Shown: one piece after another, positions 9,073 to 54,019 of the stretch | Position numbering within the stretch: the first letter of the stretch is position 1 | Layout: every line of letters begins with the position of its first letter | Assembly (NCBI GenBank): GCA_963765125.1 | Contig: CAVXUZ010000004.1 | Span: forward strand, 792 to 64,791 | Length of the DNA: 64,000 nucleotides | Reading direction: 5' to 3' | From: an uncultured candidate division WWE3 bacterium | GTDB taxonomy: Bacteria > Patescibacteriota > WWE3 > UBA101185 > UBA10185 | The notes under the pieces: generated by a model | Databases searched by the model: none | Seen by the model: only the letters and a program-made list of their open reading frames with translations | What the model was told of the DNA's origin: nothing | Made by a program: the position numbers and the translations under genes

Positions 9073-10962
9073 ATGAAAGTATTTGTCGGAGGTCACCTCA
9101 TCAATATGAGTAGCTTAGACGTAATAGGTCCAGGCGGTGAGGGTCTTGTGGTCAAAGCCAAAATCAACGGAAATAAAACTGTTGCACTTAAGGTTTACCA
9201 TGAGAAGTTGCAAACAATAGCACGCGCAAGAAAACTTAAAGCCTTCTTTGCGCAAAAATGGACTTTACCGACAAACAGGATTGCGGTACCAATCGAACCG
9301 GCTTACAACGAAGATAAATCATTAATCATAGGTTTGATAATGCCCTATCTCGGAACCGGCTTCGACGACATTGCACAACTTTCCAATAAAAATATACGAC
9401 TAAGTTATGGCATAAATACCAAAAACGTAGCTCAAATATTTTTAGATGGCCTCGGAACTCTTGAGCAGATCCATTCTAATGGACTAGTGGTTGGTGATCT
9501 TAGCGATCGCAACGTCCTATTCCGAGGAACGGAGATGCTATGGATCGATGTTGACTCCTGGCAGTTTGGTAATTTTCCATGTCCCGTAGCTACAGAGGAA
9601 TACGTTGACCCCAATCTTTACGGGGTTGATCTTCCAAATGCTCCGGCGTTTAAACCTGAAAATGACTGGTATTCCTTCGCTGTCTTATTTTTCAGAAGCC
9701 TCTTAATGGTTCATCCATACGGAGGCGTCCATAAAACAGTAAAAGAATTAAAACGAAGAGCGAAGAGTAGAATCACGGTTTTTGACAAAGACGTGAAATA
9801 CCCAAAGATCGCTTTTTCACCAGACATTTTATCAGACGATTTGGCTCAGGAATTCGACAAGATATTCAGAACTGGCGTAAGGGAAACTTTCCCAAAAAGC
9901 CTAGTCCAAAATTATCTTAATGACCTGACTGAATGTTCAAACTGTCATTCGTGGTACCCACGAAATAGAAAAGGTTGTCCTGTTTGTAACAAACGCACTG
10001 TAGTGATTATCGCAAGAAAAGTTATTGCTAATAAGGGTGTTAGGTCTTTCGAGTTTTTTAAAACCTCAGGCGACATCGTTTACACAAAAGTTAGTAATAA
10101 CAAAATCTTTGTGGTAACTCATGAAAATGGAAAAGCTAAGTTACATACAATCGACCAAAACGGTAACGTTTCAGAAAAACATCTTTCAGATACTTCCGAA
10201 GGTGCCCGTTACACTATGACCGAAGAAATTCTGTCTGTAAATTACGGACACTCACAAGAAATTATCCTGCACGATGTTACATCAAAAAGCGTGAGGCAAA
10301 TAAAGCAAACCGTTACGGAACTTTATGAACCAAACCGTAGGGCAGTCTTTCAAGCAACACAAAATAAAGTCCTTCGCATGATCGGAGGAAATATTCTATC
10401 TATAGAGAAAGGAGGAATGGGAATAATTGAACGATCAATCAGAACTGGTGTTCCTAACCAAACATGGTTTTCCGCAAACGACAGTTACAACGGAATGCAG
10501 CTTTTTGGCTTAATCCAAATACTGCACGAAAAAAGATTCTGGTACCACCTAGATGGGCAGAACTTTGAACCCAGTATTCCAAACTTAGAAATAGACGAGG
10601 TTCTGCTAGACATTTCTGTAAAGTTCTCACATGGAGAAGTATTACTAAGAAGGAAGTCACAGCAAAACGGAGTCGACTTTTTAAGACAAGAAATTGTGAA
10701 CGACAACGGTGAGGTAACTTACTCATCAAGAATTAGGTATGGTGATTATCCGGTACAAGGTATGCACGGGCAGATTTACTCAAACGGTATACTGCTTCAT
10801 GCTACAGACGACGGGATAGTTCAAGAAAAAGTTACTAGCCAAGAGTTCAAGACCTTCAAGCAAACTATGCCTTTTGTTGGAGAAGGAGACATCCTTCACA
10901 AATTTAACAAGGGCATCGTCGTAGTAGATTCAAACTCAATAACATATCTTGAATTAAGATAA
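9073..10962 (+). CDS. Ser/Thr protein kinase-like protein with zinc-ribbon and large C-terminal domain of unknown function
   Basis: Gly-loop GPGGEG, VALK lysine, catalytic loop GDLSDRNVLF, DVDSWQFG, DWYSFAVLF; CSNCHSW...CPVCNK zinc ribbon; RBS AAGGAGG. Confidence 0.65.
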   Translation: MKVFVGGHLINMSSLDVIGPGGEGLVVKAKINGNKTVALKVYHEKLQTIARARKLKAFFAQKWTLPTNRIAVPIEPAYNEDKSLIIGLIMPYLGTGFDDIAQLSNKNIRLSYGINTKNVAQIFLDGLGTLEQIHSNGLVVGDLSDRNVLFRGTEMLWIDVDSWQFGNFPCPVATEEYVDPNLYGVDLPNAPAFKPENDWYSFAVLFFRSLLMVHPYGGVHKTVKELKRRAKSRITVFDKDVKYPKIAFSPDILSDDLAQEFDKIFRTGVRETFPKSLVQNYLNDLTECSNCHSWYPRNRKGCPVCNKRTVVIIARKVIANKGVRSFEFFKTSGDIVYTKVSNNKIFVVTHENGKAKLHTIDQNGNVSEKHLSDTSEGARYTMTEEILSVNYGHSQEIILHDVTSKSVRQIKQTVTELYEPNRRAVFQATQNKVLRMIGGNILSIEKGGMGIIERSIRTGVPNQTWFSANDSYNGMQLFGLIQILHEKRFWYHLDGQNFEPSIPNLEIDEVLLDISVKFSHGEVLLRRKSQQNGVDFLRQEIVNDNGEVTYSSRIRYGDYPVQGMHGQIYSNGILLHATDDGIVQEKVTSQEFKTFKQTMPFVGEGDILHKFNKGIVVVDSNSITYLELR

Positions 10963-39662: not shown

Positions 39663-40181
39663 ATGAGCTCTATTATGTCAGATACAAACGCTCCAACAGA
39701 AAAAAAGAAACTCGTCATTGGATGGTACTCCTTTACATGCTGTGAGGACAGTACTATTTTATTCACCGAGTTATTAAACGATCACTACGACGAATGGAAA
39801 AAAGTAGTCGAATTTAGATATATACGTTCGCTAAAAACAAACAATGAAACACGCGATCTCGATGTGGCCTTTATAGAAGGCGCCATTTCATCAAAAAAAC
39901 AAGAGGACGAGGTAATAAATATAAGAGCAAACGCTAAATATGTTGTTGCGGTCGGCGCGTGTGCTTGCACTGGTATGCCTTCTGCGAGTCGAAACGCTTT
40001 TACACCAGAAAATATTACAGAACGAATTCAATGGTATTTAAGCCACTTTGATTACAGCGAAAAAGTAAGAAAACTAGACGAAGTTATAAAAGTTGACGAT
40101 TGGATCAACGGCTGCCCGATGGGTGTAGACGCTTTTTATGCAGCGCTTGATAAGTATTTAAAATTATTTGAAATAATCTAA
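39663..40181 (+). CDS. [NiFe]-hydrogenase small subunit, minimal NuoB/EchC-like (single proximal Fe-S cluster)
   Basis: FTCCEDS, GACACTG, GCPMG motifs resembling the NuoB-type CCxxE / GxCxxxG / GCPP cysteine ligands; 172 aa; immediately upstream of large subunit. Confidence 0.6.
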   Translation: MSSIMSDTNAPTEKKKLVIGWYSFTCCEDSTILFTELLNDHYDEWKKVVEFRYIRSLKTNNETRDLDVAFIEGAISSKKQEDEVINIRANAKYVVAVGACACTGMPSASRNAFTPENITERIQWYLSHFDYSEKVRKLDEVIKVDDWINGCPMGVDAFYAALDKYLKLFEII

Positions 40182-40182
40182 T

Positions 40183-41484
40183 ATGCATAGCGGAGAAATT
40201 ACAATTGATAACATTACAAAGATTGAGGGTTCTGCGGGACTTAAAGTTACTATAGAAAATGATAAAGTAACTGATCTCAAATTTATTATTCAAGATTATC
40301 GACGATTTTATACTGAGGCTGTCAAAGGTAAACCGTACATTGCAGCGCCATCGTTTCTCTCAAGAATTTGTGGCACCTGCTCAGTTGCACATTTATTTGC
40401 AGCGCTCGAAGCAGTAGAAAAATCTCAAGGTATTCAACTTAGCGAACAATCTAAAACATTACGTAGGCTTGCTTATGACGGTTTGATGATTCGCGACCAT
40501 GCACTACACTTATACTTTTTTGTATTACCAGACATTTTAGGAATAGATTCGATATTAGATATCCCAGACGAACACGATAACGAAGGTCACCAATTACTGC
40601 ACGACTCCTTTGATATAAAGCGCGTAGGTACAACAATAACTGACGTTATTATCGGCGCTGCAATACACGCTCCTTATCCAACAGTTGGAGGATTTTTAAA
40701 AACACCAGATGCGAGTAAATTTCCTGCATTGATTGAGAGTCTTAAAAAAATAAGGCCGATGGCAATCAGAGGAGTTGAGACATTTGCAAAATGGGATATT
40801 AAACTTATTAGAAATTCTGATTACTTAGCGATAAGAAACCCAGAAAGATACGACTACATTGAGGGTGAAGTGATTAACTCAAGTGGTAAACGCGTTCCTG
40901 AAGAAAAGTTTCATGACTTTTTGAAATCAGTTGTTATTCCATACTCTCAAGCTGAAGGATATGTATTTTCAGATGTTCACGATGATTACTTAGTAGGTTC
41001 TTTGGCACGCATAAACTTTAACAAAGATCAGTTGCATCCAGATACTAAACGGGATATTGCAAAATATTTAGATTTATTTCCTTCAAATAATGTTTTTCAC
41101 AATAATCTTGCACAAGCTATTGAGATATTGCAGAGTATCGATAACGCAATTGAGATACTAGAAAATATTAAACTTGTAGATGAAAAGCCAATCAGGCAGC
41201 CAGCACGCGCGGGTACTGGCGTAGGTGTTATAGAAGCTCCAAGAGGAATTTTGTACCACTACGCGCAGGTTAACGAAAAAGGGATGATCGTGGATTACGA
41301 TGTTATTGTACCTACAGCCCAAAATCAGATTAATATAGAAAACGATCTCAAAAAATATTTTAATGAGAATCTCGACAAAGACCAAAATACATTAAGACTT
41401 GAAGCAGAGAAGATTATTCGTGCCTACGATCCTTGTATGTCTTGCGCGACTAATTTCTTAAAAATAGAGTGGATTGTTAAATAA
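40183..41484 (+). CDS. [NiFe]-hydrogenase large (catalytic) subunit
   Basis: N-terminal RICGTCSVAH and C-terminal DPCMSCATN Ni-Fe ligand motifs, short C-terminal extension. Confidence 0.85.
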   Translation: MHSGEITIDNITKIEGSAGLKVTIENDKVTDLKFIIQDYRRFYTEAVKGKPYIAAPSFLSRICGTCSVAHLFAALEAVEKSQGIQLSEQSKTLRRLAYDGLMIRDHALHLYFFVLPDILGIDSILDIPDEHDNEGHQLLHDSFDIKRVGTTITDVIIGAAIHAPYPTVGGFLKTPDASKFPALIESLKKIRPMAIRGVETFAKWDIKLIRNSDYLAIRNPERYDYIEGEVINSSGKRVPEEKFHDFLKSVVIPYSQAEGYVFSDVHDDYLVGSLARINFNKDQLHPDTKRDIAKYLDLFPSNNVFHNNLAQAIEILQSIDNAIEILENIKLVDEKPIRQPARAGTGVGVIEAPRGILYHYAQVNEKGMIVDYDVIVPTAQNQINIENDLKKYFNENLDKDQNTLRLEAEKIIRAYDPCMSCATNFLKIEWIVK

Positions 41485-41846
41485 TCAATATCCTTATCTT
41501 TTGGTAATCCAATAATACTGACGTTTCCAATTTTTCCTAATTTCTTTAAATATTTTAATTGAAAACCTAAATCAAAATCGTGTACTGAGGTTCTTGGAGA
41601 ATTTACTAATTTATCTATACTCTTGTCGTCAAGTAAAACGGTTTTATCAATTCCTTCCACTGTGTCCATCAAAATAATATTTTCATTTTCGTTGAACGGA
41701 AGATCTTGGTTTGGTTTAACAATTTCAAAGTCTATATTGTTGTAGACACTGCTCTCATCACCAACCATAGTTTTTAAATGTTCGACTGCTCTAAATGAGT
41801 AATTATCTTGTGGGTGATCTTCGTTGCCAAAAAGGTAGACTTTCAT
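41424..41846 (-). CDS. Hydrogenase maturation endopeptidase (HycI/HyaD family)
   Basis: ILMDTVEG and SVHDFDLG metal-binding motifs; 3' end overlaps large-subunit 3' end by ~60 nt. Confidence 0.6.
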   Translation of the reverse strand: MKVYLFGNEDHPQDNYSFRAVEHLKTMVGDESSVYNNIDFEIVKPNQDLPFNENENIILMDTVEGIDKTVLLDDKSIDKLVNSPRTSVHDFDLGFQLKYLKKLGKIGNVSIIGLPKDKDIDYLTIHSIFKKLVAQDIQGS

Positions 41847-41874: not shown

Positions 41875-42591
41875 ATGAAAGAAGATATTAAAGCTTTAAA
41901 ACTTGTTTCACGATTCTCACTCCCACCTAATTCACTTGGTTACTGCGGTAAAACAACTGCGCCAGAAAGGCTCAATTCGTGTGTTATCAAAGGTGATTGT
42001 GAAGGCGTTTCTAATGAATTGGAAAACTTTATTGTTTTAAACCCTTATCTAAAAACAATTAGCGAAATATCAGGTAAACCGAGATTTGGCTATGAAGTTA
42101 TAGAGTGTTACTGCATTGGAAATGAGCTAAGCGGTAAATTCGATTTATCAGGTTATGATTTACTACTTAAGAATTTTATCTCTCAGGGTGTTCCCGATTT
42201 TTTTGTTGATGAATTAAAATGTAATCCACCTAAGACTTTTATACCCACTCATCTTTTTCAAGTATTATATGTTGGGGTTGGAAAAGCGAGCGGGTCAGTA
42301 CTTTACAATATGGATACGATTAACAACTGTATGGTTAGATGGGGAGAAGTTAAAAATATAAGTAACGATAAAATTACTGTGGATTTAAATATGCTTGAAG
42401 GAACCCCTGAAGATAAATTATTTAAATTAGTAAAAAAAGAAGAAACATTTTCATTTAACAAATTGTTTGTCCCAAAATTAAAAGTTGGCAGTATTGTGGC
42501 AGTACATTGGCAGCAGGTTATTAAAATACTTACAAAGCAAGAAGTTAAAAATATTGAGTATTGGACAAAGAAAGTCTTAAATAGTTTCTAA
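41875..42591 (+). CDS. Hypothetical Cys-containing protein
   Basis: ORF; GYCGK...NSCVIKGDCEG. Confidence 0.4.
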   Translation: MKEDIKALKLVSRFSLPPNSLGYCGKTTAPERLNSCVIKGDCEGVSNELENFIVLNPYLKTISEISGKPRFGYEVIECYCIGNELSGKFDLSGYDLLLKNFISQGVPDFFVDELKCNPPKTFIPTHLFQVLYVGVGKASGSVLYNMDTINNCMVRWGEVKNISNDKITVDLNMLEGTPEDKLFKLVKKEETFSFNKLFVPKLKVGSIVAVHWQQVIKILTKQEVKNIEYWTKKVLNSF

Positions 42592-43491
42592 AGATTTTAC
42601 CTGATTTCCCTTTGCAGAAAACCAAAACAACATAAGTCCCACCACAGATAATAATATTTGTGGTGCAAGCTCTGCATTCCAGGCGCGAGTAATAAAAATT
42701 GCTGAAAAAGCATTTGTTATAAGCGTTGAAAATGCTAAAACTGAGGCAACGGTAATAGCAGGACTAATTTTTAAGGCTCTGTACCATGTATAAACATACG
42801 CGAGCAAAGTCATAGCGGTCGCTAATACCCAGATAATTTGGTTGCCATTGATAGCAACTACTTTTTGGAGAGCGTTAGGAATTGTTAAAAGTGAAGCACC
42901 AATTAGTAACAAGGAACCAACGCCCATTCTTGCGAAAGTAAGAATATCTGCGTCAACGTTTTTAAGAACTTTTTTAGCAATTATATTTTCCACCGCCCAA
43001 AGTATTGTCGCAGCTAAAATCATAACTTCTCCTGTTGAGAATTTAAATCCTGTGAATCCCCCGATAAATAAATTACTTCCAAAAAGTGCGAGAAGTCCAA
43101 CAATTTGAAGTTTAGTCATTTTCTCTTTTAAAAATGGAAGCGCTAGTAATGCAACCCAAATAATTAATGTTTTATGAATTAAAGCTGCGTTTATAGCTGA
43201 AGCAGATGATAGCCCAGTGAAAAATAAATAAAATGGCAGTGCACCTCCTACAAGTCCTACAAGTAGTAATCCACGTAGATTACGTTTTTCTAATTTCATG
43301 ATCTTTGCAATTTTTCCGGTGCTAAGTAGAACAGCTAATATCACCAAACCAACAATTGTATTTTTTACTGTAGTGAATAAAAGTGGAGGAGTTACCGCGC
43401 CGACAGCAAATTTGTTTATAAATATCGACACGCCAGATATTATCGCGGTCAACAAAGCTATATAAATACCTTTCATTTCTCTATTGGGCAT
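42577..43491 (-). CDS. EamA/DMT-family transporter
   Basis: 10-TM duplicated EamA pattern. Confidence 0.65.
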   Translation of the reverse strand: MPNREMKGIYIALLTAIISGVSIFINKFAVGAVTPPLLFTTVKNTIVGLVILAVLLSTGKIAKIMKLEKRNLRGLLLVGLVGGALPFYLFFTGLSSASAINAALIHKTLIIWVALLALPFLKEKMTKLQIVGLLALFGSNLFIGGFTGFKFSTGEVMILAATILWAVENIIAKKVLKNVDADILTFARMGVGSLLLIGASLLTIPNALQKVVAINGNQIIWVLATAMTLLAYVYTWYRALKISPAITVASVLAFSTLITNAFSAIFITRAWNAELAPQILLSVVGLMLFWFSAKGNQVKSLETI

Positions 43492-43513: not shown

Positions 43514-43768
43514 TTAATTTGGCCAAACCTGTTCGCCTGTTTCAGAATTGGTGATGATAATCGCTTTTGTAGGGCATGACTGCGCCGCTAAAAGCAAGTT
43601 ATCCTCTGTATCTTGGCTTGTTTCTAAAATGACTGCTTTTTTCTCAGCATCTAATTCAAACGTATCTGGAGAAAAAGCAATACATGAAGCAGCGCCAATA
43701 CACAGATCGCGAACGACTTGAACTTTATATTTTCCTATTTGGACTATTTTGTCTTGTGAGTTATCCAT
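43514..43768 (-). CDS. Ferredoxin (single/7Fe-type, Pyrococcus-like)
   Basis: CIGAASCIAFSP ... AAQSCPTKAI cysteine pattern, 84 aa. Confidence 0.7.
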   Translation of the reverse strand: MDNSQDKIVQIGKYKVQVVRDLCIGAASCIAFSPDTFELDAEKKAVILETSQDTEDNLLLAAQSCPTKAIIITNSETGEQVWPN

Positions 43769-43823
43769 TGGTCTATGTTATTAGATTTTAGCTAAATGTA
43801 CAACTACTCTTTTTGGAATGAAA

Positions 43824-44681
43824 TTACATGTACTTCTTAAAGATGTCGGTAAGATCTTTTCTGATTGGATTTGATGCAACCAGTGGATATTGAGAGAGCT
43901 GTGATAATTGTGATTCGTAAGAAGGTTTATCTTCTTCGTAAAGTATTCCCAACGGAACACTTTTTTCACCAAACTCCTGAGATTTCTTAAAAGCAGTTTC
44001 TTTGTTGGTCTTGTCGTAAGTAGAATCTAGATAGTATGTGTTATTGTGATAAAACTCATGACTCAGTGTTTTGTTGAAAGTTACACAAGGCTGCAAAATA
44101 TCTAAAACTGAAATTCCTTTATGCTTGTTTGCTGCAACTATCAAATCTTTAAGTTGAGCCATATCTCCTGTAAATCCACGCGCAACAAATGTAGCACCTG
44201 CTGAAATTGCTAAGGTCAGTGGGTTTAACGGCCAATCGGGATTACCGTCGGGTGTAGATTTTGATTTAAACCCGTGGGGTGAGGCAGGAGACGTTTGCCC
44301 TGTTGTTAAAGCATAAAGTCCGTTGTCATGAAGTAAAATAGTAATATCGTGGTTTCTTCTACACGCATGAATAAAGTGGTTACCACCTTCTCCTAAACAA
44401 TCACCATCCCCAGTAAAAACAAAAACATTGAGCGCGTGATTTGCCATTTTAAGACCAGAAGCAACCGGTATTGCTCGACCGTGCAAACCCTCAACCGCTG
44501 TAATTTTTGTGAAGTTAACAATATGGCCATGGCAACCGATACCTGCTACATATGATGTATTTGTATTATTCCAACCTTCTTGAACTGCTGCCATTTTAAA
44601 CGAAGACCAAAGTGCTAAGTTTCCACAGCCTGGGCACCAATTTGGATTACACGGAGTTTGAAGTTGCGCCATTGTTGTCAT
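43824..44681 (-). CDS. 2-oxoacid:ferredoxin oxidoreductase beta (TPP-binding) subunit
   Basis: CPGCGN, GDGD TPP motif. Confidence 0.85.
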   Translation of the reverse strand: MTTMAQLQTPCNPNWCPGCGNLALWSSFKMAAVQEGWNNTNTSYVAGIGCHGHIVNFTKITAVEGLHGRAIPVASGLKMANHALNVFVFTGDGDCLGEGGNHFIHACRRNHDITILLHDNGLYALTTGQTSPASPHGFKSKSTPDGNPDWPLNPLTLAISAGATFVARGFTGDMAQLKDLIVAANKHKGISVLDILQPCVTFNKTLSHEFYHNNTYYLDSTYDKTNKETAFKKSQEFGEKSVPLGILYEEDKPSYESQLSQLSQYPLVASNPIRKDLTDIFKKYM

Positions 44682-46429
44682 TTCTCTTCTCCCTTCAACA
44701 CTGAATTTATTTTTTCTATAATTTCTTCTACAAAAAATGGGCGACCGTCGTACTTTAAGAAATTATCTTTTATTTCAAAGCCAGTCTTTTCTCTAATAAT
44801 TCCCGCCATATGCCCTGTGTAATTAGCTTCGATATTTATGACATGTTTTGTTTTGCTTAATACTTCGAAAATTCTTTTGGCAGGAAATGGATTTGCCCAT
44901 GTAAGATGCAAATAGTTTACGTTTTCAAATTCATTTATGGCTTGAAGAATGCTTCCCTTGTTGCTACCCCAAGAAACTATTGTTATATCAGCGTTTTCTG
45001 GGCCATACAAAACTGGTTGATCCATATCTTCCCTCTCGCAAGTAATAAGTTTTTGCATTCGCTTTTTCATTTGCTCATTACGATTGTCTATTTCTTCGCT
45101 CGAATAACCTTTTTCGTCGTGCTCGTCTGAATTTGCAATAAAGAAATTTCCTACACCGGGAACAGTACGAGTAGAAATTCCGTCTTCTGATAAATTGTAG
45201 CGTTTAAATTCAGGGTCGAGGTCTAAAGAAAGTTTTCCTCTGTTCACTACAAAATTAGAATTATCAAATACTTCAACGGTTTTATCGTGTTCACAAAGAT
45301 TTTTGTCAATTAGTACAACAACTGGAGTTTGATATTTTTCTGCAAGATTAAATGCTTTTCTCGTAAGGTCAAAAACTTCTTCTATATCTCCTGGTGTTAG
45401 CACAATTCTCGGAAAATCTCCTTGATGTGCATGTAGAACAAATCTCAAATCACCTTGTTCGCTCCAAGTGGGAAGACCGGTAGCTGGTGCACCTCGCTGA
45501 CCTTCAACAATAACTACACCAACTTCGGCAATTCCTGCTAGACCATAAGCCTCAGACATTAATGCGAAACCTCCACCTGAGGTGGAAGTCATTGATCTGG
45601 CGCCTGCAAACGATGCCCCAATAGCCATATTTATCGCGGAAATCTCATCTTCTGGCTGTTTATAAACAAATCCATATTTTTGCTGGTAACTCGTTAAAAA
45701 GTGCAAAATATTAGAAATTGGTGACATTGGATAAATTGCAATAAACTGAACCCCGCCCGCGATTGCACCCATTCCCGCTGCCTCGTTTCCATTTACTACC
45801 ATAAGTGGTTTTCCATTTGGGTAACCTTGCACAGAATTTAGAATGTCTACAACCTTACTATCGTAGTTTTCTTTTGCATATTTATAACCAAGTTCTGCCG
45901 CTTTTAAATCGGCGTTGATAATTTCTTCTGATTTACCTGCGTACTCTTCTCTTACAAACGCTTTTAATATTTCTATATTTCCACCGAGCATTCCCGTGAT
46001 AGCCCCTAGTGCAACACTATTTATCAACAATTCGTCCCCACCTGATTCTTTTGCAAAAGCAGACAAATTTACAGGGTAAAGATTAATTCCCGCGGGAACT
46101 TTTGATACGTCTATCTTTTTATCGCCGTCATAAATTATTCCTGCGCCATCAGTCAAACTATCTAGATGAAAATCAATTCCGTCTTGATTAAGCGCAACTA
46201 GAAGATCTGTTTTATTACTTGGACCTTCAACTTTTTCTTTTGAAATATTAATCTGCATCACATTGTGTCCACCTCTAATAATTGAAGGATATTCGATATA
46301 GTTAAAAATGTAACACCCGGATCTGGCGGCAAATCGAGCAAAAAGGATCCCTGATGACTTAATACCCTGTCCAGCCATACCGGCTATTTTTACAGAATAT
46401 ATTTTTTGTTTTGTTAATGTTTTTTTCAT
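44678..46429 (-). CDS. 2-oxoacid:ferredoxin oxidoreductase alpha subunit (gamma-alpha fused)
   Basis: N-terminal gamma-type domain (GMAGQGIKSSG) + alpha pyrimidine-binding domain; overlaps beta start. Confidence 0.85.
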   Translation of the reverse strand: MKKTLTKQKIYSVKIAGMAGQGIKSSGILFARFAARSGCYIFNYIEYPSIIRGGHNVMQINISKEKVEGPSNKTDLLVALNQDGIDFHLDSLTDGAGIIYDGDKKIDVSKVPAGINLYPVNLSAFAKESGGDELLINSVALGAITGMLGGNIEILKAFVREEYAGKSEEIINADLKAAELGYKYAKENYDSKVVDILNSVQGYPNGKPLMVVNGNEAAGMGAIAGGVQFIAIYPMSPISNILHFLTSYQQKYGFVYKQPEDEISAINMAIGASFAGARSMTSTSGGGFALMSEAYGLAGIAEVGVVIVEGQRGAPATGLPTWSEQGDLRFVLHAHQGDFPRIVLTPGDIEEVFDLTRKAFNLAEKYQTPVVVLIDKNLCEHDKTVEVFDNSNFVVNRGKLSLDLDPEFKRYNLSEDGISTRTVPGVGNFFIANSDEHDEKGYSSEEIDNRNEQMKKRMQKLITCEREDMDQPVLYGPENADITIVSWGSNKGSILQAINEFENVNYLHLTWANPFPAKRIFEVLSKTKHVINIEANYTGHMAGIIREKTGFEIKDNFLKYDGRPFFVEEIIEKINSVLKGEEK

Positions 46430-49290
46430 TAAACGAATCTCTCAGAGTAAATTCTAGACTCCTGACAACCAGTTTGTTTTAGTAAATCAGTCGCACCTTT
46501 AATCATAGCAGGATGCCCACACAAATACGCCGAACAATTCATTGTATCTTTAAAATTTTGTTTAACTAAGTCGGTATTAAATCCTCTTGGGCCTGTCCAC
46601 GCAGGACTTGGCTCATATAAAACGTATTCGTAATTAAATTGTGGATATTTTTGCTTCAAATTGTCAAAAGTATCTTTCCAAAATATTTCTTCTTCACGTG
46701 TTAAACCATAATATAAAGTGTGTGCGGCTGTTGAATGTTCTTCTTCAAGTGACGTTTCGATCATACATCTTAATGCACTAATTCCAGAACCTGTTGCTAA
46801 AAATATTTTGTGGTCTGAACCATCGTCATTATGTAATACAAATACTCCAAATGGTCCTAAGAATTGCATTTTCTCTCCAACTTTTATTTTGTCAAAAAAT
46901 TGTGAACCAGGACCTCCAGGTCTTGTATCAACTAAGAGCGCGTATTTATTTGGACCGAGTTTTGATGCAATCGAGTAAGCTCTAATTGCTGTATCAGAAA
47001 CTTTTACGCTGACGTACTGACCAGCTTTAAAATCAAAAGGCTCGGCTGTCTCAAATTCAAAATAGTTGAATTTTGTTGCTGGCACAGTGTGAACGGTGCA
47101 TGTAGCTTCCTTAAGTTTTGGCCCCACTGCTGGTTTTTTACTTTCTTTGATGATGATTTTTCCATCAACTGCCCAAACGTTATCTTTTGTGACTATTACA
47201 GGATTAATTTCTATATCTGTAGCTTCTGGAATAAGTTCACCCATCTTTCCAACCCTAACGATTAAATCGTAAAGTTTTTCTAATGCGTACTGCGCAACGC
47301 CATCTTTATCTTTCAATAGTGAATAGATTTTTGAACCTTCAACAATCTTTTTTGCGTCGGTTAATTCTACAGGTAATAAATGAATATTCTTATCACCAAT
47401 CAAATCTGCATAATGACCACCTGCTCCAAAAAGAAGCAACGGACCAAATGTCGGGTCGGTTTTTATTCCAATAATTATCTCAACGCCACTCATTACATCT
47501 TTTTGTATTTGAAACGAAATTGTTTTTTTAATTTCGGTACTTAATTTTTCAGCGTTTAATAAAAGATCCATCCAGGCTTTTTCTAAACCTACGTTATCAA
47601 TAATATTTAAGATAACTCCACCGACTTTGTCTTTGTGTATAAGCCCTGGCGCAGACAACTTTAGAACAACTGGCCAACCATTTTCTGCAGCAAACGTTTT
47701 TGCTTCGTCGATACTCACTACATTTTTTGTCGGCGGTGTGTTTATTCCTACAACTTTAAATATTGAGTCGACATCGACGTTACCTACTGTTGTACTCCCT
47801 TCAGTAACTGTTTTTTGAATTATTGTTCTGATAACTCCAGTTTCGGGTGTAATTTCAAAAGGTGTACCAGCAAGTTCTTCTGGGTTGTTGATCTGACGCT
47901 TTTTAAACTGCCACATCGCGGAAAGTGCCTTAATAGCTCTTTCAGGAAATTCAAAAGACGGTATTTTATATTTATTGAGAGCCTTGGTACCTTGCTCGAC
48001 GGCTCTTCCACCGATAAATGAACAAAGTATTGGTTTTGCATATTTTTTAGATAACTCTCCTATTACTTGCGCAGTTTTTTCTGCTTCGGTCATTAGTTGA
48101 GGGGTAAGTAATACAATCAAAGAATCAACTTCGCTGTTTTGTAAAACTATTTCTATTGCTTCGGCAAACCTGTCTGAAAGTGCGTCACCCAAAACGTCTA
48201 CCGGATTAATAATGCTTGCCGATCTTGGTAACACATTTTGTAATTTAGTTTTTGTTGCGTCATCAAATTGAGCGAACTCAAGACCACTAGTTACAACCGA
48301 GTCCGCGCTAATAACTGCCGGCCCACCTGCATTAGAGATTACTGCAACTTTTGGTCCTAATGGAGAATTTTCCCATGCAAACGCACGTGAATAATCAAAA
48401 AATTCTTCGAGTGTGTAACATCTAATCGCACCTGATTGCTTTAAAACTTCGTCGAGTACTGCGTCTTCGCCTGCGATTGCCCCTGTGTGTGATTGCATTG
48501 CTTTTGCAGCCGCTGTGGTTTTTCCTGGCTTAATAATTAATACGGGATCTTTTTTTGATATTTCTGAAATGTAACGTAAAAGTTCTGGGCCATTTGCTAT
48601 CGACTCTAAATATAAACCGATCGGCCTCACATTTGATAACCCCTCAGGAAGATGTGTAACCAGCTGGTCTTGGCTCTGTCTTAAGAAATTAAAAAGAATA
48701 TCGTTTTCAGTGATGCCTGCTTTATTCCCTAAAGTTACAAATTCACTAACCCCAAGACCTGTTGTGTTGCAATAATCAACCAAACTCGCTGCAATTGCAC
48801 CAGATTGTGTTATAAATCTCAAATTTCCAGATTCTTGTACTTTTTCAGCAAACGTGGCGTTCAAAGAGATTTGTGTATTAACAAAACCTAAACAGTTAGG
48901 ACCTAGCAAATTAATTGAAAACTTCTTTGCTATATCGATTAGATTTTTTTCTAGCTTTTCTCCTTCTGCACCGATTTCTTTAAACCCCGCGGACAACACC
49001 ACAACATTTTTTACTCCCTTTTCGCCGAGTTTAGTTACCGCATCACCTACAACAGTTGAAGGAATGCATACTATGGCGAGTTCTGGAACTTCTGGTATCG
49101 CAGATACGTCAACAAACGCAGTAAATCCTTGAATATCTGTAGCGTTTGGGTTAATAGGAAATATTTTTCCACTATAACCAGATTCTTTTATGTTTTTTAC
49201 AACTATTGAACCTAGTTTTTCTGGTGATCTTGATGCTCCGATAATCGCTATCGATTTGGGATAGAAAAAATTCGTCAACTCTGTGGGCAT
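46429..49290 (-). CDS. ADP-forming acetyl-CoA synthetase (fused alpha/beta, NDP-forming acyl-CoA ligase) with C-terminal FNR-like FAD/NAD(P)-binding reductase domain (~last 230 aa, nt ~46429-47130)
   Basis: CoA-binding and ligase-CoA domains, then an ATP-grasp beta domain. The C-terminus carries RAYSIAS (RxYS), GGPGS, GPFG, ATGSGISAL (GxGxxP-like) and YLCGHPAM motifs of the ferredoxin-NADP+ reductase family. Confidence 0.8.
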   Translation of the reverse strand: MPTELTNFFYPKSIAIIGASRSPEKLGSIVVKNIKESGYSGKIFPINPNATDIQGFTAFVDVSAIPEVPELAIVCIPSTVVGDAVTKLGEKGVKNVVVLSAGFKEIGAEGEKLEKNLIDIAKKFSINLLGPNCLGFVNTQISLNATFAEKVQESGNLRFITQSGAIAASLVDYCNTTGLGVSEFVTLGNKAGITENDILFNFLRQSQDQLVTHLPEGLSNVRPIGLYLESIANGPELLRYISEISKKDPVLIIKPGKTTAAAKAMQSHTGAIAGEDAVLDEVLKQSGAIRCYTLEEFFDYSRAFAWENSPLGPKVAVISNAGGPAVISADSVVTSGLEFAQFDDATKTKLQNVLPRSASIINPVDVLGDALSDRFAEAIEIVLQNSEVDSLIVLLTPQLMTEAEKTAQVIGELSKKYAKPILCSFIGGRAVEQGTKALNKYKIPSFEFPERAIKALSAMWQFKKRQINNPEELAGTPFEITPETGVIRTIIQKTVTEGSTTVGNVDVDSIFKVVGINTPPTKNVVSIDEAKTFAAENGWPVVLKLSAPGLIHKDKVGGVILNIIDNVGLEKAWMDLLLNAEKLSTEIKKTISFQIQKDVMSGVEIIIGIKTDPTFGPLLLFGAGGHYADLIGDKNIHLLPVELTDAKKIVEGSKIYSLLKDKDGVAQYALEKLYDLIVRVGKMGELIPEATDIEINPVIVTKDNVWAVDGKIIIKESKKPAVGPKLKEATCTVHTVPATKFNYFEFETAEPFDFKAGQYVSVKVSDTAIRAYSIASKLGPNKYALLVDTRPGGPGSQFFDKIKVGEKMQFLGPFGVFVLHNDDGSDHKIFLATGSGISALRCMIETSLEEEHSTAAHTLYYGLTREEEIFWKDTFDNLKQKYPQFNYEYVLYEPSPAWTGPRGFNTDLVKQNFKDTMNCSAYLCGHPAMIKGATDLLKQTGCQESRIYSERFV

Positions 49291-49360
49291 ACGTTCAGTT
49301 TATTGGAGTTTACAGCAGGTGTCAAAGACCTAAACCTTCAACTCCTGTTAAAATAAAGGG

Positions 49361-50293
49361 GTGAAGAAACTAATTAGTTTTATAGTTCTTATAGCCCTGG
49401 TAGCAGTTATTTATCTTAATTTTTCTAACATAAAAGCTTACTACAATAGATGGGTAGTATTTTCTTTTTGTGACAACCCAATTACATATAGGGTTGGTGA
49501 AATTGACCCCAAATTTAATCTCAACAATGACGAGCTTAAAAAATACATTGATGAAGGAGCAGACGTTTGGAATACAATGCTAGGTAAAAAACTGTTTATT
49601 TACGATTCCAATTCAGAACTCGAAATAAGTCTTGTTTATGACGAAAGGCAAGAGACGATGAAAAAAGTTAGTGATGAGAGAACACAGGTCGAAAAACAAA
49701 AAGCTACATATGATAGAGAACTTGCAGATTTTGAAAATGAAAAGCAAACGGTGCAAGCTTCCCTAAATAAATTAAATGATGAAATTCAGTACTGGAATTC
49801 AAAAGGTGGCGCGCCTGAAGATGTCTATGATGACTTAATCAACAAGCAAAAAATAATTCAAAAGGACATCGATAGAATTAATCAAGAAACAGAAAGAATA
49901 AATTCATTAGTAGATAGATTAAATAACGAGATAGAAAACCTTAATGATAAAGTGAGCAAATTCAATAATATTTTAACTACAAAACCGGAGCAGGGGCTTT
50001 TTATTGGTGGTGCAAAAAGAATTGAAATATACATATATGATGATAAAAATAGTTTTGTTCACACAATTGCGCATGAGCTCGGTCACGCGCTAGGTCTAGA
50101 CCACACAGACGCGGATCTAGCAATAATGAACCCAACCTCCTCGCCAGATTCAAAAGTAACCGAGGCAGATAAAGAACTGCTGGCAGCGCTCTGTTCCGAA
50201 CAAGATAGAATGCAACTATTTGTAAATGACACCAAAATGATTATCCAAAGACTCTTTTCTGAATTGAAAAATGTGATACCATTGAAAACATGA
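49361..50293 (+). CDS. Secreted zinc metalloprotease (matrixin/M10-like) with coiled-coil region
   Basis: HELGHALGLDHTDADLAIM (HExxHxxGxxH + Met-turn), N-terminal TM. Confidence 0.65.
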   Translation: MKKLISFIVLIALVAVIYLNFSNIKAYYNRWVVFSFCDNPITYRVGEIDPKFNLNNDELKKYIDEGADVWNTMLGKKLFIYDSNSELEISLVYDERQETMKKVSDERTQVEKQKATYDRELADFENEKQTVQASLNKLNDEIQYWNSKGGAPEDVYDDLINKQKIIQKDIDRINQETERINSLVDRLNNEIENLNDKVSKFNNILTTKPEQGLFIGGAKRIEIYIYDDKNSFVHTIAHELGHALGLDHTDADLAIMNPTSSPDSKVTEADKELLAALCSEQDRMQLFVNDTKMIIQRLFSELKNVIPLKT

Positions 50294-50697
50294 AAAAATC
50301 AATAAAGTTTATACTCATTGCAACATTATTAATTGTTGTTTACTCATTTTTAAAGAGAAAGCCATTAGATAAAATTGAATTTTCAGAAAATATTAATGAT
50401 GTAGTTTCACCTGTCGAAAGAGTTGCAAACTATAGAGCTGATTTTGGATTGTGTCAAAAAGGTTTGAAAATTGAAATTCCTTCTAAATCTGGTTCGTCAA
50501 AGTTATTTATTAACGATAAAACTGAAACTGACTGTATTGCTCAAACTATTTTTGAATCACAAGGTGGTTTTTTTACAAATGATTGTCTAATACCACTTTC
50601 CACAGGAACTGTCGTCTTTAATGGTGAGAACTTTGAAGAAATCTCAAACTACTGCCAAATAAACTCAACCGGTACCGGTCTCCTCGAACTTAATTAA
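50290..50697 (+). CDS. Secreted hypothetical protein
   Basis: ORF with signal/TM. Confidence 0.45.
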   Translation: MKKSIKFILIATLLIVVYSFLKRKPLDKIEFSENINDVVSPVERVANYRADFGLCQKGLKIEIPSKSGSSKLFINDKTETDCIAQTIFESQGGFFTNDCLIPLSTGTVVFNGENFEEISNYCQINSTGTGLLELN

Positions 50698-50720
50698 GTG
50701 CTATATTAGTTTTATTCTTT

Positions 50721-52268
50721 ATGGAAATAAACAAAATATTGCCATTTATCGCGATTTTCTTAGTTTTAGCCTTAATTACTGTAATTGTACTTTTCTCACC
50801 AAGGACTAAGGGCGAGAAAATAGTCGAAAACATCATCAACACAGCAAAAAACAACATTTCTGAAAAAATAAGAAAAAGTTCAGTTGCAGGTCAATTTTAT
50901 ACAGACGACCCACAAAAACTGTCTTTAGAGCTAGAAAACTATATTAATTCCGCCAGTAAAATACAAACGCAAGGCAAGTTAAGAATACTTGTTTCACCGC
51001 ACGCAGGAACACAATACTCTGGAAAAACCGCGGGGGCTGCGTTTAAGCAAATTGATCCTAAAAATTATAAAAGGGTGATTATTCTTGGAGTAAGCCACGA
51101 GAATGTTATTAATAAAGCTGCTGTAATTTCAAAAGGATACTGGGATACCCCTCTTGGTAAATTACATATTGACGAAGAAGCCGCTAAAAAAATAGTTAAC
51201 GGTCATAATATTATCGAGAATGATACTGCACATAACAACGAGCACTCAATTGAATTAATTGGAATATTTGTTAAATACTTGTTTGGTGATGTAAAAATAG
51301 TACCTATTCTTCTCGGTCAAACTGATGATACATTATTAAATTCTTTAGCGTACACTATTGCAAATAATTTTGACGATGAAACATTACTCATCGTAAGTAC
51401 TGATCTTTCGCACTATCCAAATTGGGACGATGCGGTGAAATCAGATACTAATGTTATTAATTCTCTACTTACAGGAAATATAAATACTTTTGAAAATGCA
51501 GTTTTAGAAAATAAATCTGCAAATTATCCCAATCACAGTACATCAGCCTGTGGCTACGAACCACTAAGAGTCGCACTTAAAATATCAGATATTTTAAAGT
51601 TTAAAGAAATTAAAAAAATTGATTACACAAATTCAGGTGATATTACTGGGGACAAATCTCGTGTTGTGGGATACGGCGCTGTAGGCTTCTATAGCAACGA
51701 TATTACGCCCGTCACCTTAAGCCAAAATGCCAAACAAGAACTTCTAAGACTTGCACGCGCTACGATTGAAAGTTATGTAAAAAGTAACACTATTTTAAAT
51801 TTTGCACCGATAAATGATGAGCTCTTTTTACCGCTCGGCGCATTTGTAACATTAACAGAAAATGATCAGCTTCGTGGCTGCATCGGAGAATTTGAACCTA
51901 ATTACCCTCTATACGAAGTCATTCAAAGCGTGTCGATTTCTTCGGCTACCAAAGATCCTAGATTTAGACCAGTCACTACAGCAGAATTAGATAAAATTAA
52001 TATTGAGATCTCCACGATGACTCCTCAAGTACAGATATATGATTGGAAAGATATTAAACTAGGAGTTCATGGTGTAAGAATACAAAACGGTAATAAATCT
52101 GGAACTTTTCTTCCACAGGTAGCAACAGATAACAAATGGGATTTAGAAACGTTTTTACAAAATCTTTGTACTGAAAAAGCTAATCTTGATGAGGACTGTT
52201 ATAAAAATCCAGAAACAAAGATATACGTATTTGAAACTGACATTTTTGAAGAAACTCACGAAAACTAG
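50721..52268 (+). CDS. Fused AmmeMemoRadiSam system protein B (MEMO1-like) + protein A (AMMECR1 domain)
   Basis: SPHAGTQYSG...GVSH Memo-like N-terminal half; LGAFVTLTE...LRGCIGEFEP AMMECR1 signature in C-terminal half. Confidence 0.7.
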   Translation: MEINKILPFIAIFLVLALITVIVLFSPRTKGEKIVENIINTAKNNISEKIRKSSVAGQFYTDDPQKLSLELENYINSASKIQTQGKLRILVSPHAGTQYSGKTAGAAFKQIDPKNYKRVIILGVSHENVINKAAVISKGYWDTPLGKLHIDEEAAKKIVNGHNIIENDTAHNNEHSIELIGIFVKYLFGDVKIVPILLGQTDDTLLNSLAYTIANNFDDETLLIVSTDLSHYPNWDDAVKSDTNVINSLLTGNINTFENAVLENKSANYPNHSTSACGYEPLRVALKISDILKFKEIKKIDYTNSGDITGDKSRVVGYGAVGFYSNDITPVTLSQNAKQELLRLARATIESYVKSNTILNFAPINDELFLPLGAFVTLTENDQLRGCIGEFEPNYPLYEVIQSVSISSATKDPRFRPVTTAELDKINIEISTMTPQVQIYDWKDIKLGVHGVRIQNGNKSGTFLPQVATDNKWDLETFLQNLCTEKANLDEDCYKNPETKIYVFETDIFEETHEN

Positions 52269-54019
52269 TTTGACTTTAATGCAAGTTCTATATCATTAAG
52301 TCGTTTAAGTGCGTATTGATTATTTGGGTCGATAGCTAGCGACCTCTCAAAAAGTTTTTTAGAATCTTCGTAATTACCTAGTTCGAAATAAAATTCTGCA
52401 ACGTTAAGGTTGTACTCGATTTGCTCCATATCAAGCGCTAAAGCCCTATTTAAGAAGAATGAGATTGTCTTAATATCAGAGTTTTTCTCACTTTCACGTT
52501 TTGCATAATCAAAAAAATCCCTTGCTCTATTAGCATCCTGCGTAGGCTTGGCATAATCTTCTCTGTATATAAGAGGTCCGAATTGAATGTAAATATATCC
52601 AAGGTTGCTAATTGCTGTACCAGACGTAGGAATTACTGTTAAACCTTTTTCATAAAACGCAACTGCTTTTTTAATATCACCCTTCATAAAATAATGTCCA
52701 CCTACATCGTTGTATGGCCTTACACTTAACGGCGATGCTTTCATTGTTGCGTATGCCAATGTTTCAGTATCTTGCCAATCATTATTTCTCATTATCGTTC
52801 GAACAGAGTATATAATTAGAAGCAAACCAAAAGCTCCATAAATAAAGAATTTATTTTTCCATTTAGATTCAAGCTTCTCAAATAATAATGCAACCATGAT
52901 TGCAAAAAATGCAGTTCCTGTATAAAGATACCTTTCTGCTAAAAACCATGTAATTTTTATTGGGGAGTACGCCGGCGCAATTAATATGGGTAATATTATT
53001 AAGAGTCCTGTTAACTTTCTGTTTCTTTTCCAAAAATAAATAATGAGAGAAACGTAGGCGATAAATGCTGTGTACATGGATAAATAAAGAAGTGGCGTTA
53101 CTGCCATTCCATCATAGTAGACAGATAAATTCTTAGGAAAAAGATATAAGCCTGACATCAAATACGTGGTATACGGATAACCTTGTACGACAGGTATAAA
53201 CGACTGTGTGTTTATCGTTATTCTCGTTCCGCCTTCGCTTCTAGTATTCAATCTATTTGCGTAAATATCAGGAAAAACTGTAGCAAGATATACGCCAATT
53301 GGGATGAGCAATAAAATCACCCACCATAATTTTTTAATATTTAACTTTTTCTCAAAAAAGAATTGGTCTAGAACTACAAGTGCCATAGGAGTTACTAAAA
53401 CCCACGGAGACCTGAGTAATATTATCTGCAAAATGTATAAAACAATCATCACGGATAAATAAATATATTTGCTTTTGTTGCTTTTTTTGAATAGCAGGTA
53501 AAAAAGAAATATTAAGAGATTAAACAAACCTGTATATAGATACGGGCTGCCACTTATCCAAGTGGATGCCTCTGTGTTTATTGGGTGAACTAAAAATACT
53601 AACGACGCAATAATCGCCTTTTTCTGATCAAATAAAAGGTACACAAAAAAGTACACCAAGATGCTGGCTGTTAAATGCAACGCTAGCGAAACAATTCTTA
53701 ATGGCAAAGGGTTATATTGAAAAAAATGATATGAAATAGCGTAAACGGTTTTTTGTATGCTTAGTGATTTTACAGTTGCAACCAAATCTTTAATATTTTC
53801 GTCATAAACAAACCCCTGTATATCGTCAACTAACGTTAGCTGGTTGTCCAATGAATTAAAATAAACCCCCAAACCAATCAGTAGAAGAACAACAATCACT
53901 ATTAGGTGCATAAAAAGCCTGCTTTTTTTAGTGTTAGTTTCAGTGACAACAACAGCTTTTTCTACGTCTCTTTGCTCTTTTTGAAGTTCAATTTTCTGCT
54001 TCCTTGTCAGTTTAACCAT
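52265..54019 (-). CDS. Polytopic membrane protein (GT-C/PMT-like fold) with C-terminal TPR repeats
   Basis: ~11 TM helices then TPR-like repeats (AVAFYEKG..., AEFYFELGNYEDSKKLFERSLAIDPNN). Confidence 0.55.
   Translation of the reverse strand: MVKLTRKQKIELQKEQRDVEKAVVVTETNTKKSRLFMHLIVIVVLLLIGLGVYFNSLDNQLTLVDDIQGFVYDENIKDLVATVKSLSIQKTVYAISYHFFQYNPLPLRIVSLALHLTASILVYFFVYLLFDQKKAIIASLVFLVHPINTEASTWISGSPYLYTGLFNLLIFLFYLLFKKSNKSKYIYLSVMIVLYILQIILLRSPWVLVTPMALVVLDQFFFEKKLNIKKLWWVILLLIPIGVYLATVFPDIYANRLNTRSEGGTRITINTQSFIPVVQGYPYTTYLMSGLYLFPKNLSVYYDGMAVTPLLYLSMYTAFIAYVSLIIYFWKRNRKLTGLLIILPILIAPAYSPIKITWFLAERYLYTGTAFFAIMVALLFEKLESKWKNKFFIYGAFGLLLIIYSVRTIMRNNDWQDTETLAYATMKASPLSVRPYNDVGGHYFMKGDIKKAVAFYEKGLTVIPTSGTAISNLGYIYIQFGPLIYREDYAKPTQDANRARDFFDYAKRESEKNSDIKTISFFLNRALALDMEQIEYNLNVAEFYFELGNYEDSKKLFERSLAIDPNNQYALKRLNDIELALKSN

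Follow-up and report, generated by a model that had tools for sequence, protein, structure and literature searches.

An ADP-forming acyl-CoA synthetase with a C-terminal ferredoxin-NADP+ reductase-like module, conserved in operons of WWE3/Microgenomates-type Patescibacteria

Why would an ADP-forming acyl-CoA synthetase (ACD) carry a reductase of the ferredoxin-NADP+ reductase (FNR) superfamily at its C-terminus? The question is raised by the minus-strand locus 43514-49290 of a 64,000-nt stretch of DNA from an uncultured candidate division WWE3 bacterium (assembly GCA_963765125.1, contig CAVXUZ010000004.1), called the window below, to which all positions refer. Four closely spaced open reading frames (ORFs) of 953, 583, 285 and 84 aa were identified at this locus and, with Pfam and NCBIfam profile scans of the ORF list, annotated as the fused synthetase-reductase, the alpha subunit (a gamma-alpha fusion) and the beta subunit of a 2-oxoacid:ferredoxin oxidoreductase (OFOR), and a single-cluster ferredoxin (Table 1). 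An earlier note, made from the sequence alone, had proposed this same operon make-up, which both profile collections bear out. We found that the fusion is conserved in WWE3/Microgenomates-type Patescibacteria and is no rarity of one genome, and its reductase module is probably a tethered NAD(P)H:ferredoxin oxidoreductase that serves the pool of ferredoxin reduced by the OFOR.

Architecture and conservation of the fused protein

The 953-aa protein contains six Pfam domain types, all above their gathering thresholds: CoA_binding/CoA_binding_2 (residues 11-138), Succ_CoA_lig (155-304; 126 bits) and Ligase_CoA_2 (315-462), followed by ATP-grasp_5, FAD_binding_6 and NAD_binding_1 (Table 1). The five subdomains of the NDP-forming acyl-CoA synthetase superfamily are all present in its ACD body, both by Pfam and in a full-length alignment with the Nitrosopumilus 4-hydroxybutyrate-CoA ligase (PDB 8wzu; 7e-117), and the two histidines of this superfamily, H268 (SHTG) and H552 (HKxxxGG), which we take to be the catalytic residues from the literature on the Pyrococcus furiosus and Korarchaeum ACDs, are invariant in an alignment of 21 homologues with a mean column identity of 61%. 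The nearest solved proteins are active ADP-forming CoA ligases (8wzu, 2csu and 4xyl, chains 4xyl_A and 4xyl_B), after which rank the Pat acetyltransferases (PDB 9isq/9it0, aligned over residues 9-711 with E ~1e-80). In NCBIfam, residues 5-461 align with the acetate--CoA ligase alpha subunit and residues 7-703 with the fused 4-hydroxybutyrate--CoA ligase; because the scores stay under all equivalog cut-offs (TIGR02717 for the ACD alpha part, 490 bits against 567; NF045493, 470 bits against 1300), the substrate was left without an equivalog assignment, and acetyl-CoA is suggested as the substrate by the adjacent OFOR only. Domains, histidines and PDB matches agree with the synthetase identity given in the earlier note, and we predict that the body functions catalytically as an ADP-forming acyl-CoA synthetase. 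It has the same five subdomains as the P. furiosus ACD, the Ca. Korarchaeum ACD (4xyl) and 8wzu, the last of which also has the alpha-beta order, and it would be expected to catalyse the same reaction (acyl-CoA + ADP + Pi -> acid + ATP + CoA); the extra C-terminal FNR module of 225 residues is absent from all of these characterised enzymes. The kinship of the scaffold to Pat, which had also been pointed out before, is confirmed by the alignment over residues 9-711: as in Pat/PatZ, a foreign domain is appended past the ATP-grasp part of a common ACD scaffold. Here, however, this domain is an FNR-type reductase instead of GNAT (no GNAT or Acetyltransf Pfam domain was matched in the 953-aa protein, which places it outside Pat), and the catalytic histidines are kept, so that the body is probably an enzyme and not a regulatory part.

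The C-terminal module shows the domain order of the FNR superfamily, a FAD_binding_6 barrel and then an NAD_binding_1 domain, in the Pfam scan, in the AlphaFold2 model and in the Foldseek comparison alike, and the protein ends directly past the NAD domain. Every cofactor motif that the earlier note had named in this tail was located: RAYS (770-773), GGPGS (792-796), GPFG (812-815), TGSGISA (833-839) and CGHPAM (924-929). A C-terminal aromatic residue, F952, is present as well. Invariant in the 21-sequence alignment are Y772, S773, G793, G795, S796, G812, G815, T833, G834, G836, C924, G925 and M929, while an aromatic residue at the penultimate position is almost invariant. The [2Fe-2S] domain is missing, as had been noticed, since neither Fer2 nor any other Fe-S domain was found in the protein by the Pfam scan. 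With this set of motifs, the module would be expected to bind a flavin.

The full-length AlphaFold2 model has a mean predicted local distance difference test (pLDDT) score of 84.6, and the isolated module, modelled alone, has a score of 87, with ~90-95 across the module proper. Foldseek against the PDB returned 334 FNR-superfamily matches with E <= 0.001. The closest folds are the FAD domain of NqrF, GcoB (root-mean-square deviation, rmsd, 1.9 A), CarAd, T4moF and BenC, with E about 1e-20 to 1e-21, and Escherichia coli Fre (1qfj; E ~3e-18, target-normalised template-modelling score, TM, 0.90, rmsd 2.1), followed by Fpr (1fdr; target-normalised TM 0.81) and, at a greater distance, by the gamma subunit of sulfhydrogenase I from Pyrococcus (9nf0_C; TM 0.74). 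In NqrF, GcoB, CarAd, T4moF and BenC, though not in Fre, the flavin hands the electrons of NAD(P)H on to an Fe-S centre. Sequence matches in the PDB are better for the Fe-S-linked reductases, with 5ogx, NqrF, the methane monooxygenase (MMO) reductase MMOR and BenC at 1e-19 to 1e-21 and Fre at 5e-10. In NCBIfam, residues 729-952 align with the whole of Fre (PRK08051, positions 4-230 of 233), and the module aligns with the reductase halves of MmoC, BenC and AntC, past their [2Fe-2S] domains (from profile positions 124-197 on). None of these families accommodates it: the N-terminal [2Fe-2S] domain of BenC/AntC/MmoC/NqrF is absent and the scores are low (124 bits against 500, 113 against 430), Fre is matched with 92 bits against a cut-off of 230 by what is a domain of a 953-aa protein, and, besides lacking a counterpart of their C-terminal [2Fe-2S]-binding region, the module matches the HydG/ShyC gamma subunits so poorly (47, 41 and 30 bits, with cut-offs at 395, 600 and 650) that it is not an orthologue of these.

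In 9 of the 21 fused homologues aligned, Asn stands in place of the arginine of the RxYS motif (R770, nt 46981-46983). These Asn forms read N-C-Y-S or N-S/A-Y-S, and the family consists of RAYS-type and NCYS-type subgroups that also differ at positions 839 (A versus P) and 926 (H versus N), a split that could reflect differing flavin or nucleotide preferences. Comparison of the region after G862 with relatives gave no reliable discriminator between NADH and NADPH.

Is the junction between the two modules genuine? The earlier note had raised the possibility that a misassembly or a missed stop codon near nt 47130 joined two separate genes, and had suggested a search for the same fusion in other genomes. 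When 5.8 billion protein clusters were searched, 7634 relatives of the 953-aa protein came up, of which the best 120 are 50-64% identical to it at ~100% query coverage, are 936-1018 aa long and share the same seven-Pfam architecture, so that at least 120 clusters possess it. These 120 matches derive from four assembly sources (NCBI, JGI, ENA and Logan), and the source names, some labels discussed below aside, are all those of Patescibacteria: WWE3, Levybacteria, Roizmanbacteria, Woesebacteria, Microgenomates and "Patescibacteria group". Fourteen fused loci from independent assemblies were fetched, 12 of them distinct and one in the complete genome RAAC2_WWE3_1 (CP006914.1), and a single uninterrupted frame crosses the junction in all 14. 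The linker itself is predicted to be disordered, differs in sequence in every aligned homologue and varies in length (P0033 has an insertion of ~16 aa); that the frame is kept through so poorly conserved a segment is evidence of selection. An artefact of sequencing, assembly or gene calling, for which no support was found among these data, can be dismissed for practical purposes.

One apparent stand-alone form proved to be the opposite of such an artefact. P0123 (L008, positions 1-901; GCA_041643395.1, JBGGGU010021038.1) is listed as a stand-alone FNR of 241 aa, but it represents the C-terminal end of a fused gene that errors have cut short: the end of the ATP-grasp part (VIVTLNDVWAVD) lies in frame upstream of it, broken by stop codons near the contig edge. 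Gene calls on short contigs can thus imitate unfused forms, and P0123 was left out of the unfused count.

Six of the fetched loci (L012, L014, L015 and L020-L022) are TPA_asm entries labelled Gammaproteobacteria, Pseudomonadales or Saccharibacteria. They contain a gene cluster of the candidate phyla radiation (CPR) type or an FNR-ferredoxin pair, whose products are 40-70% identical to those of the window. Because of their 32-47% GC and this same CPR-type synteny, we consider the labels unreliable.

Gene neighbourhoods and the three-cysteine ferredoxin

The TAA stop codon of the fused gene overlaps the ATG of the OFOR alpha gene (TAATG), and there is a further overlap, of 4 nt, between the genes for OFOR alpha and beta; this argues for co-translation. 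Both OFOR subunits score over their NCBIfam cut-offs (alpha, 617 bits against 483 for TIGR03710; beta, 297 bits for TIGR02177). Their Pfam content does not include a ferredoxin-like delta domain. An OFOR of the two-subunit Sulfolobus type depends on an external carrier, and a carrier such as the small ferredoxin of the operon is therefore required here. The same composition, gamma-alpha and beta subunits with a separate small ferredoxin, is found in the Sulfolobus/Aeropyrum-type enzymes, and in Sulfolobus the OFOR reduces the [3Fe-4S] cluster of a 7Fe ferredoxin; in the window, by contrast, the ferredoxin is a single-cluster protein of 84 aa, and the link between ferredoxin and NAD(P) would be a domain of the ATP-forming enzyme.

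The ferredoxin has three cysteines, C23-I-G-A26-A-S-C29 ... C65-P, and no fourth, a pattern that is invariant in five orthologues. It conforms to CXX(A/G)XXC(X)nCP, a recognised motif of [3Fe-4S] ferredoxins (PMC6237146), and the protein is accordingly classed, by its cysteine pattern, as a predicted [3Fe-4S]-type and not a canonical [4Fe-4S] ferredoxin. This sets the system apart from the reductases that resemble the module most. BenC, MMO reductase, GcoB, CarAd, T4moF and NqrF have the same two-domain fold, the same motifs and the same proposed path from NAD(P)H through flavin to an Fe-S cluster, but their cluster is a [2Fe-2S] centre in cis, whereas here it would be that of a separate ferredoxin and the reductase is fused to a synthetase. 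E. coli Fre and Fpr are modules of the same size and fold without extra domains, at ~20% sequence identity; Fpr sets a precedent for a minimal FNR whose partner is a small, soluble ferredoxin or flavodoxin. The module of the window differs from both in its covalent attachment to an ACD and in the type of ferredoxin.

The OFOR alpha and beta genes directly follow the fused gene in 13 of the 14 fused loci, with the ferredoxin gene next in most; in the fourteenth (L018) no OFOR match was found on a contig that ends ~0.9 kb downstream. Searching 1.84 billion representatives with the module only (phmmer) gave 58 matches with E <= 1e-30, a few of them fused and the following ones stand-alone proteins of ~230-250 aa with 36-50% identity, two of which (P0128 and P0129) are each encoded directly upstream of an 82-85-aa ferredoxin that is 62-65% identical to that of the window and has its three-cysteine pattern. 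A wider survey, for which the window operon proteins were mapped by tblastn and 185,579 species-representative genomes were covered, found the same arrangement in L009-L011, L021-L024 and L026-L028, where stand-alone modules (33-44% identity) lie directly upstream of orthologues of the three-cysteine ferredoxin (35-67% identity). Altogether, stand-alone FNR homologues adjoin ferredoxin orthologues (35-69% identity) in 12 fetched loci. Two loci, L019 from Levybacteria and L020, have an unfused module in the very slot of the fused gene, immediately upstream of OFOR-alpha, OFOR-beta and the ferredoxin, and no ACD was found within 10 kb of it; in L019 the genes for the transporter, the DUF6390 protein and the hydrogenase come next after the ferredoxin. 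In a weakly supported neighbour-joining (NJ) distance tree, stand-alone modules located near OFOR, acetyl-CoA synthetase or ferredoxin genes are mixed with or adjacent to the fused ones, and a sister clade is made solely of FNR-ferredoxin pairs. From these neighbourhoods it follows that the conserved unit is the reductase together with the three-cysteine ferredoxin, and that the attachment to an ACD is an add-on in one lineage.

A further stand-alone FNR gene, P0121, ~46% identical to the module, was observed on a 910-nt contig (L007, Logan SRR22388086, positions 1-862), where it directly follows the 3' end of a gene for an AMP-forming acyl/acetyl-CoA synthetase (its product ending in ...PKTRSGKIMRRILKAKELG). 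This would be a second, independent link between the reductase clade and an acetate/acetyl-CoA enzyme, but coming from a single short contig it is only a lead.

Table 1. Coordinates of the fused gene, its parts and the neighbouring features in the 64,000-nt window
Feature	Position (nt)	Strand	Remarks
Fused ACD with C-terminal FNR-like flavin reductase	46429-49290	-	953 aa; ORF, Pfam, NCBIfam
ACD alpha part, residues 1-465	47896-49290	-	CoA-binding, CoA-ligase flavodoxin-like and Ligase_CoA_2 subdomains
Phosphohistidine motif MQSH268TG	48487-48489 (His codon)	-	H268 invariant in 21 sequences
ACD beta part, ATP-grasp_5, residues 495-714	47149-47808	-	Pfam 173 bits; PDB 4xyl_B, 1wr2
Second conserved histidine H552, HK-x3-GG motif	47635-47637 (codon)	-	H552 and K553 invariant
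Inter-module linker, ~residues 715-728	47107-47148	-	Lys/Pro-rich; pLDDT < 50 at 718-723
FNR-superfamily module, residues 729-953	46432-47106	-	FAD_binding_6 + NAD_binding_1
FAD_binding_6, residues 743-817	46840-47064	-	38 bits, cut-off 21
NAD_binding_1, residues 830-933	46492-46803	-	59 bits, cut-off 22
OFOR alpha subunit, gamma-alpha fusion	44678-46429	-	583 aa; POR + POR_N + PFOR_II; TIGR03710
OFOR beta subunit, thiamine pyrophosphate (TPP)-binding	43824-44681	-	285 aa; TPP_enzyme_C + PFO_beta_C; TIGR02177
Single-cluster ferredoxin	43514-43768	-	84 aa; Pfam Fer4_13/Fer4_15
EamA/DMT-family transporter	42577-43491	-	Pfam EamA; 22 nt downstream of the ferredoxin gene
DUF6390 protein	41875-42591	+	238 aa; Pfam PF19927, 89 bits
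HycI-like hydrogenase maturation protease	41424-41846	-	Weak match, Pfam HycI E = 0.001, below cut-off
[NiFe] hydrogenase large subunit, group-3b-like	40183-41484	+	433 aa
[NiFe] hydrogenase small subunit, truncated	39663-40181	+	172 aa; one proximal cluster
Promoter-like site TTGACA-17-TAAACT	49297-49325	-	Just upstream of the fused gene; consensus scan, 10/12 matches

Proposed role of the module and competing explanations

How might the parts work together? In the scheme that we favour, the OFOR would oxidise a 2-oxoacid, probably pyruvate, to an acyl-CoA (most likely acetyl-CoA) and CO2 with reduction of the small ferredoxin, and the ACD body would convert the acyl-CoA to the acid with formation of ATP, freeing CoA for the OFOR. 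The FNR module, on a flexible tether of about 10 residues, would exchange electrons between ferredoxin and NAD(P)(H), the three-cysteine ferredoxin being the common carrier that takes the electrons of the OFOR and is the putative redox partner of the module. Electrons could flow from reduced ferredoxin to NAD(P)+, which would yield NAD(P)H and restore oxidised ferredoxin for the OFOR, or, if the potential of the cluster is high, from NAD(P)H to ferredoxin, which would then take up the electrons of OFOR and NAD(P)H alike. Where the hydrogenase described below is present, the reductase would in addition be co-localised with a diaphorase-less, group-3b-like [NiFe] enzyme. That the module handles the ferredoxin of the adjacent oxidoreductase had been suggested in the earlier note, and with the 12 stand-alone FNR-ferredoxin loci this is the best-supported part of that note's interpretation.

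The other part of that suggestion, a physical coupling of substrate-level phosphorylation to the redox step, found no support in our results, in which nothing joins the two chemistries. The linker is short, variable and predicted to be disordered, an unfused module occupies the same slot in L019 and L020, and in other loci the stand-alone module lies beside the ferredoxin alone. Since the tether is flexible and is dispensable in relatives, we see no grounds for a mechanistic coupling; the disordered, variable linker and the mixture of stand-alone and fused modules in the tree fit a beads-on-a-string arrangement. The role of the tether is most likely organisational, namely co-localisation and stoichiometry: the fusion would add no new chemistry, but would set the ratio of the enzymes and place the reductase at the OFOR/ACD/ferredoxin module.

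Several points weigh against the proposal that the module is a tethered NAD(P)H:ferredoxin oxidoreductase. One of the nearest folds (TM 0.90) is that of E. coli Fre, an enzyme that works on free flavins and does not bind one tightly, and because the RxYS arginine is Asn in 9 of 21 homologues, the type of flavin and its affinity are uncertain. The operon in L005/L006 (protein P0113) has no adjoining ferredoxin gene, and the attachment to the ACD, rather than to the OFOR or the ferredoxin, is left unexplained by our results. The enzyme functions of all members are predictions. The NJ clade of fused and nearby stand-alone modules has a low bootstrap value (11/50), so that we do not claim any number or direction of fusion or fission events. 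Finally, characterised [3Fe-4S] ferredoxins have potentials in the range of -203 to -85 mV, with extremes of -340 and +230 mV (PMC6237146). As these values are often well above that of NAD(P)H (-320 mV), transfer from ferredoxin to NAD(P)+ would be unfavourable, which would reverse the direction of flow that the earlier note proposed; lower-potential examples exist.

The hydrogenase encoded next to the operon offers a different partner. Its large subunit is homologous over its full length to the alpha subunit of P. furiosus sulfhydrogenase I (SHI) (E = 2.5e-66), which belongs with the group 3b HyhLSGB enzymes, but the small subunit matches the delta subunit (261 aa) over residues 4-150 only, has the cysteines for a single cluster and lacks the C-terminal two-cluster part; and the scan of window ORFs turned up no HyhB/HyhG-like beta or gamma diaphorase genes. 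Other CPR lineages are reported to possess HyhLSGB enzymes with all four subunits (PMC10811913). Such large-plus-small-only hydrogenases, with truncated small subunits of 165-172 aa across the window and its relatives, are kept in L001 (15818-17630), L003 (16941-18732), L016 (16160-17957) and L019 (16479-18291), and hydrogenase, HycI-like protease, DUF6390 and EamA genes occupy conserved positions in L001, L003, L012, L013, L016 and L019. The three-cysteine ferredoxin is a candidate electron partner of this hydrogenase. One could therefore read the FNR module and the ferredoxin as the missing diaphorase, replacing HyhG/HyhB and linking NAD(P)H to the evolution or uptake of H2, while the OFOR delivers its electrons to this carrier too. 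Such a role is a special case of the ferredoxin oxidoreductase scheme and compatible with it, and the FNR fold of the SHI gamma subunit, itself a structural neighbour of the module, lends it some appeal, as does the linkage of the hydrogenase to a fused gene or stand-alone module in the window and the six loci just named. We nevertheless regard it as unlikely, though worth keeping in mind. Of the 8 distinct loci with enough flank, 6 have the hydrogenase near the fused gene, and it was not found in the at least 5-7 kb of downstream flank of L005 and L017, so the association is not obligatory; the module is nearer to BenC, GcoB, NqrF and Fre than to HydG/ShyC; a [3Fe-4S] carrier with the potential typical of its kind would not be negative enough to reduce protons; and HyhB/G genes could sit elsewhere in the genome, beyond the window ORFs scanned. 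Going further, ACD-FNR, two-subunit OFOR, three-cysteine ferredoxin and truncated hydrogenase might form one fermentative metabolon peculiar to WWE3/Microgenomates, with the tethered reductase in place of HyhB/HyhG. We hold this broader idea to be a shade less likely again; if true, one small ferredoxin would be the common channel for the oxidation of pyruvate, the formation of ATP, the balancing of NAD(P)H and the metabolism of H2, which would amount to a new modular energy solution for minimal genomes and a new subunit composition of group 3 hydrogenases.

Two further explanations dispense with the ferredoxin. The module might be a redox sensor or regulator that tunes the attached synthetase through the state of NAD(P)H/NAD(P)+ or of the flavin, for which Pat, where an ACD-like body regulates the attached GNAT domain, is a precedent of C-terminal fusion on this scaffold, and the strict retention of the fusion at 50-64% identity does suggest an advantage of physical linkage. 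Yet the full catalytic motif set, including the aromatic cap and the CG motif, is kept as in working reductases, close relatives have the module free and paired with a ferredoxin, and the short, variable, predictedly disordered linker gives no sign of a fixed interface; a sensor is, in our judgement, improbable. We find it slightly harder still to credit an NAD(P)H:free-flavin (or ferric iron or oxygen-scavenging) reductase of the Fre type without a specific protein partner; it would shield the oxygen-sensitive OFOR or provide reduced flavin. The Fre-like size of the module, its end-to-end alignment with PRK08051, its fold and the non-invariant RxYS arginine are in its favour, but the score is far below the Fre cut-off, the Fe-S-linked reductases give better sequence matches than Fre, and one would not expect a dedicated ferredoxin gene to be kept next to a reductase of free flavins. 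We thus continue to prefer the reading as a tethered NAD(P)H:ferredoxin oxidoreductase.

Significance and further genes of the window

No description of an ACD-FNR fusion was found by full-text search of open-access papers and bioRxiv, in line with the earlier note, whose author knew of none. The FNR module is notorious for the variety of its fusion partners, and what we describe is a conserved, widespread and apparently undescribed architecture made from two well-known modules, and not a new principle. On the ACD scaffold it would be a third kind of C-terminal passenger, after GNAT. The CPR/Patescibacteria make up a large share of bacterial diversity, and their minimal fermentative metabolisms have been reconstructed almost wholly from annotation. 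Relatives of the 953-aa protein are publicly annotated as "acetate--CoA ligase family protein" or "acetyltransferase", and CPR metabolic reconstructions (Kantor et al. 2013, PMC3812714) count the gene as "acetate--CoA ligase" or "acetyltransferase". Counted in this way as a plain ligase or acetyltransferase, the gene kept a reductase module in the central ATP-yielding step from being noticed. Should the module act in these organisms as their ferredoxin:NAD(P) oxidoreductase, it would fill a gap in their redox balance by recycling the ferredoxin reduced by the OFOR or, alternatively, would provide a route from NAD(P)H to ferredoxin-dependent enzymes, and it may explain how diaphorase-less 3b-like hydrogenases are wired. 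The system is compact and soluble, consists of three or four small genes and could be reconstituted in vitro; biochemical follow-up appears worthwhile, as what is at issue is the core energy and redox metabolism of a large radiation without cultured members.

The EamA transporter gene is probably the last gene of the operon, co-transcribed with the OFOR and ACD genes, and its product might carry a substrate or product of the pathway, possibly a carboxylate. The promoter-like site upstream of the fused gene is only suggestive: promoter-like sites are fewer across the region than in shuffled controls, and since the promoter and terminator scan of the region did no better than these controls, we place the operon boundaries by synteny and by the spacing of the genes. 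The DUF6390 gene was always found between the EamA transporter and hydrogenase protease genes in related loci; its product, with 46-59% identity among them and several conserved-looking cysteines (e.g., SLGYCG), could be a hydrogenase or Fe-S accessory factor.

On the other side of the fused gene, a gene for an M10-type metallopeptidase is divergently transcribed, and genes for a 515-aa Memo-AMMECR1 fusion protein and a TPR protein are located nearby (region 49361-54019); this flank is kept in L001 (GCA_964510435.1, positions 946-7911). The remainder of the window contains the usual housekeeping gene mix of a small genome at ~36% GC. Its only part with raised GC (0.40-0.43, at 8-14 kb), which also has a strong positive AT skew, encodes a PP2C phosphatase paired with a 629-aa Ser/Thr protein kinase (8321-10962, plus strand), followed by two ORFs without a Pfam match.

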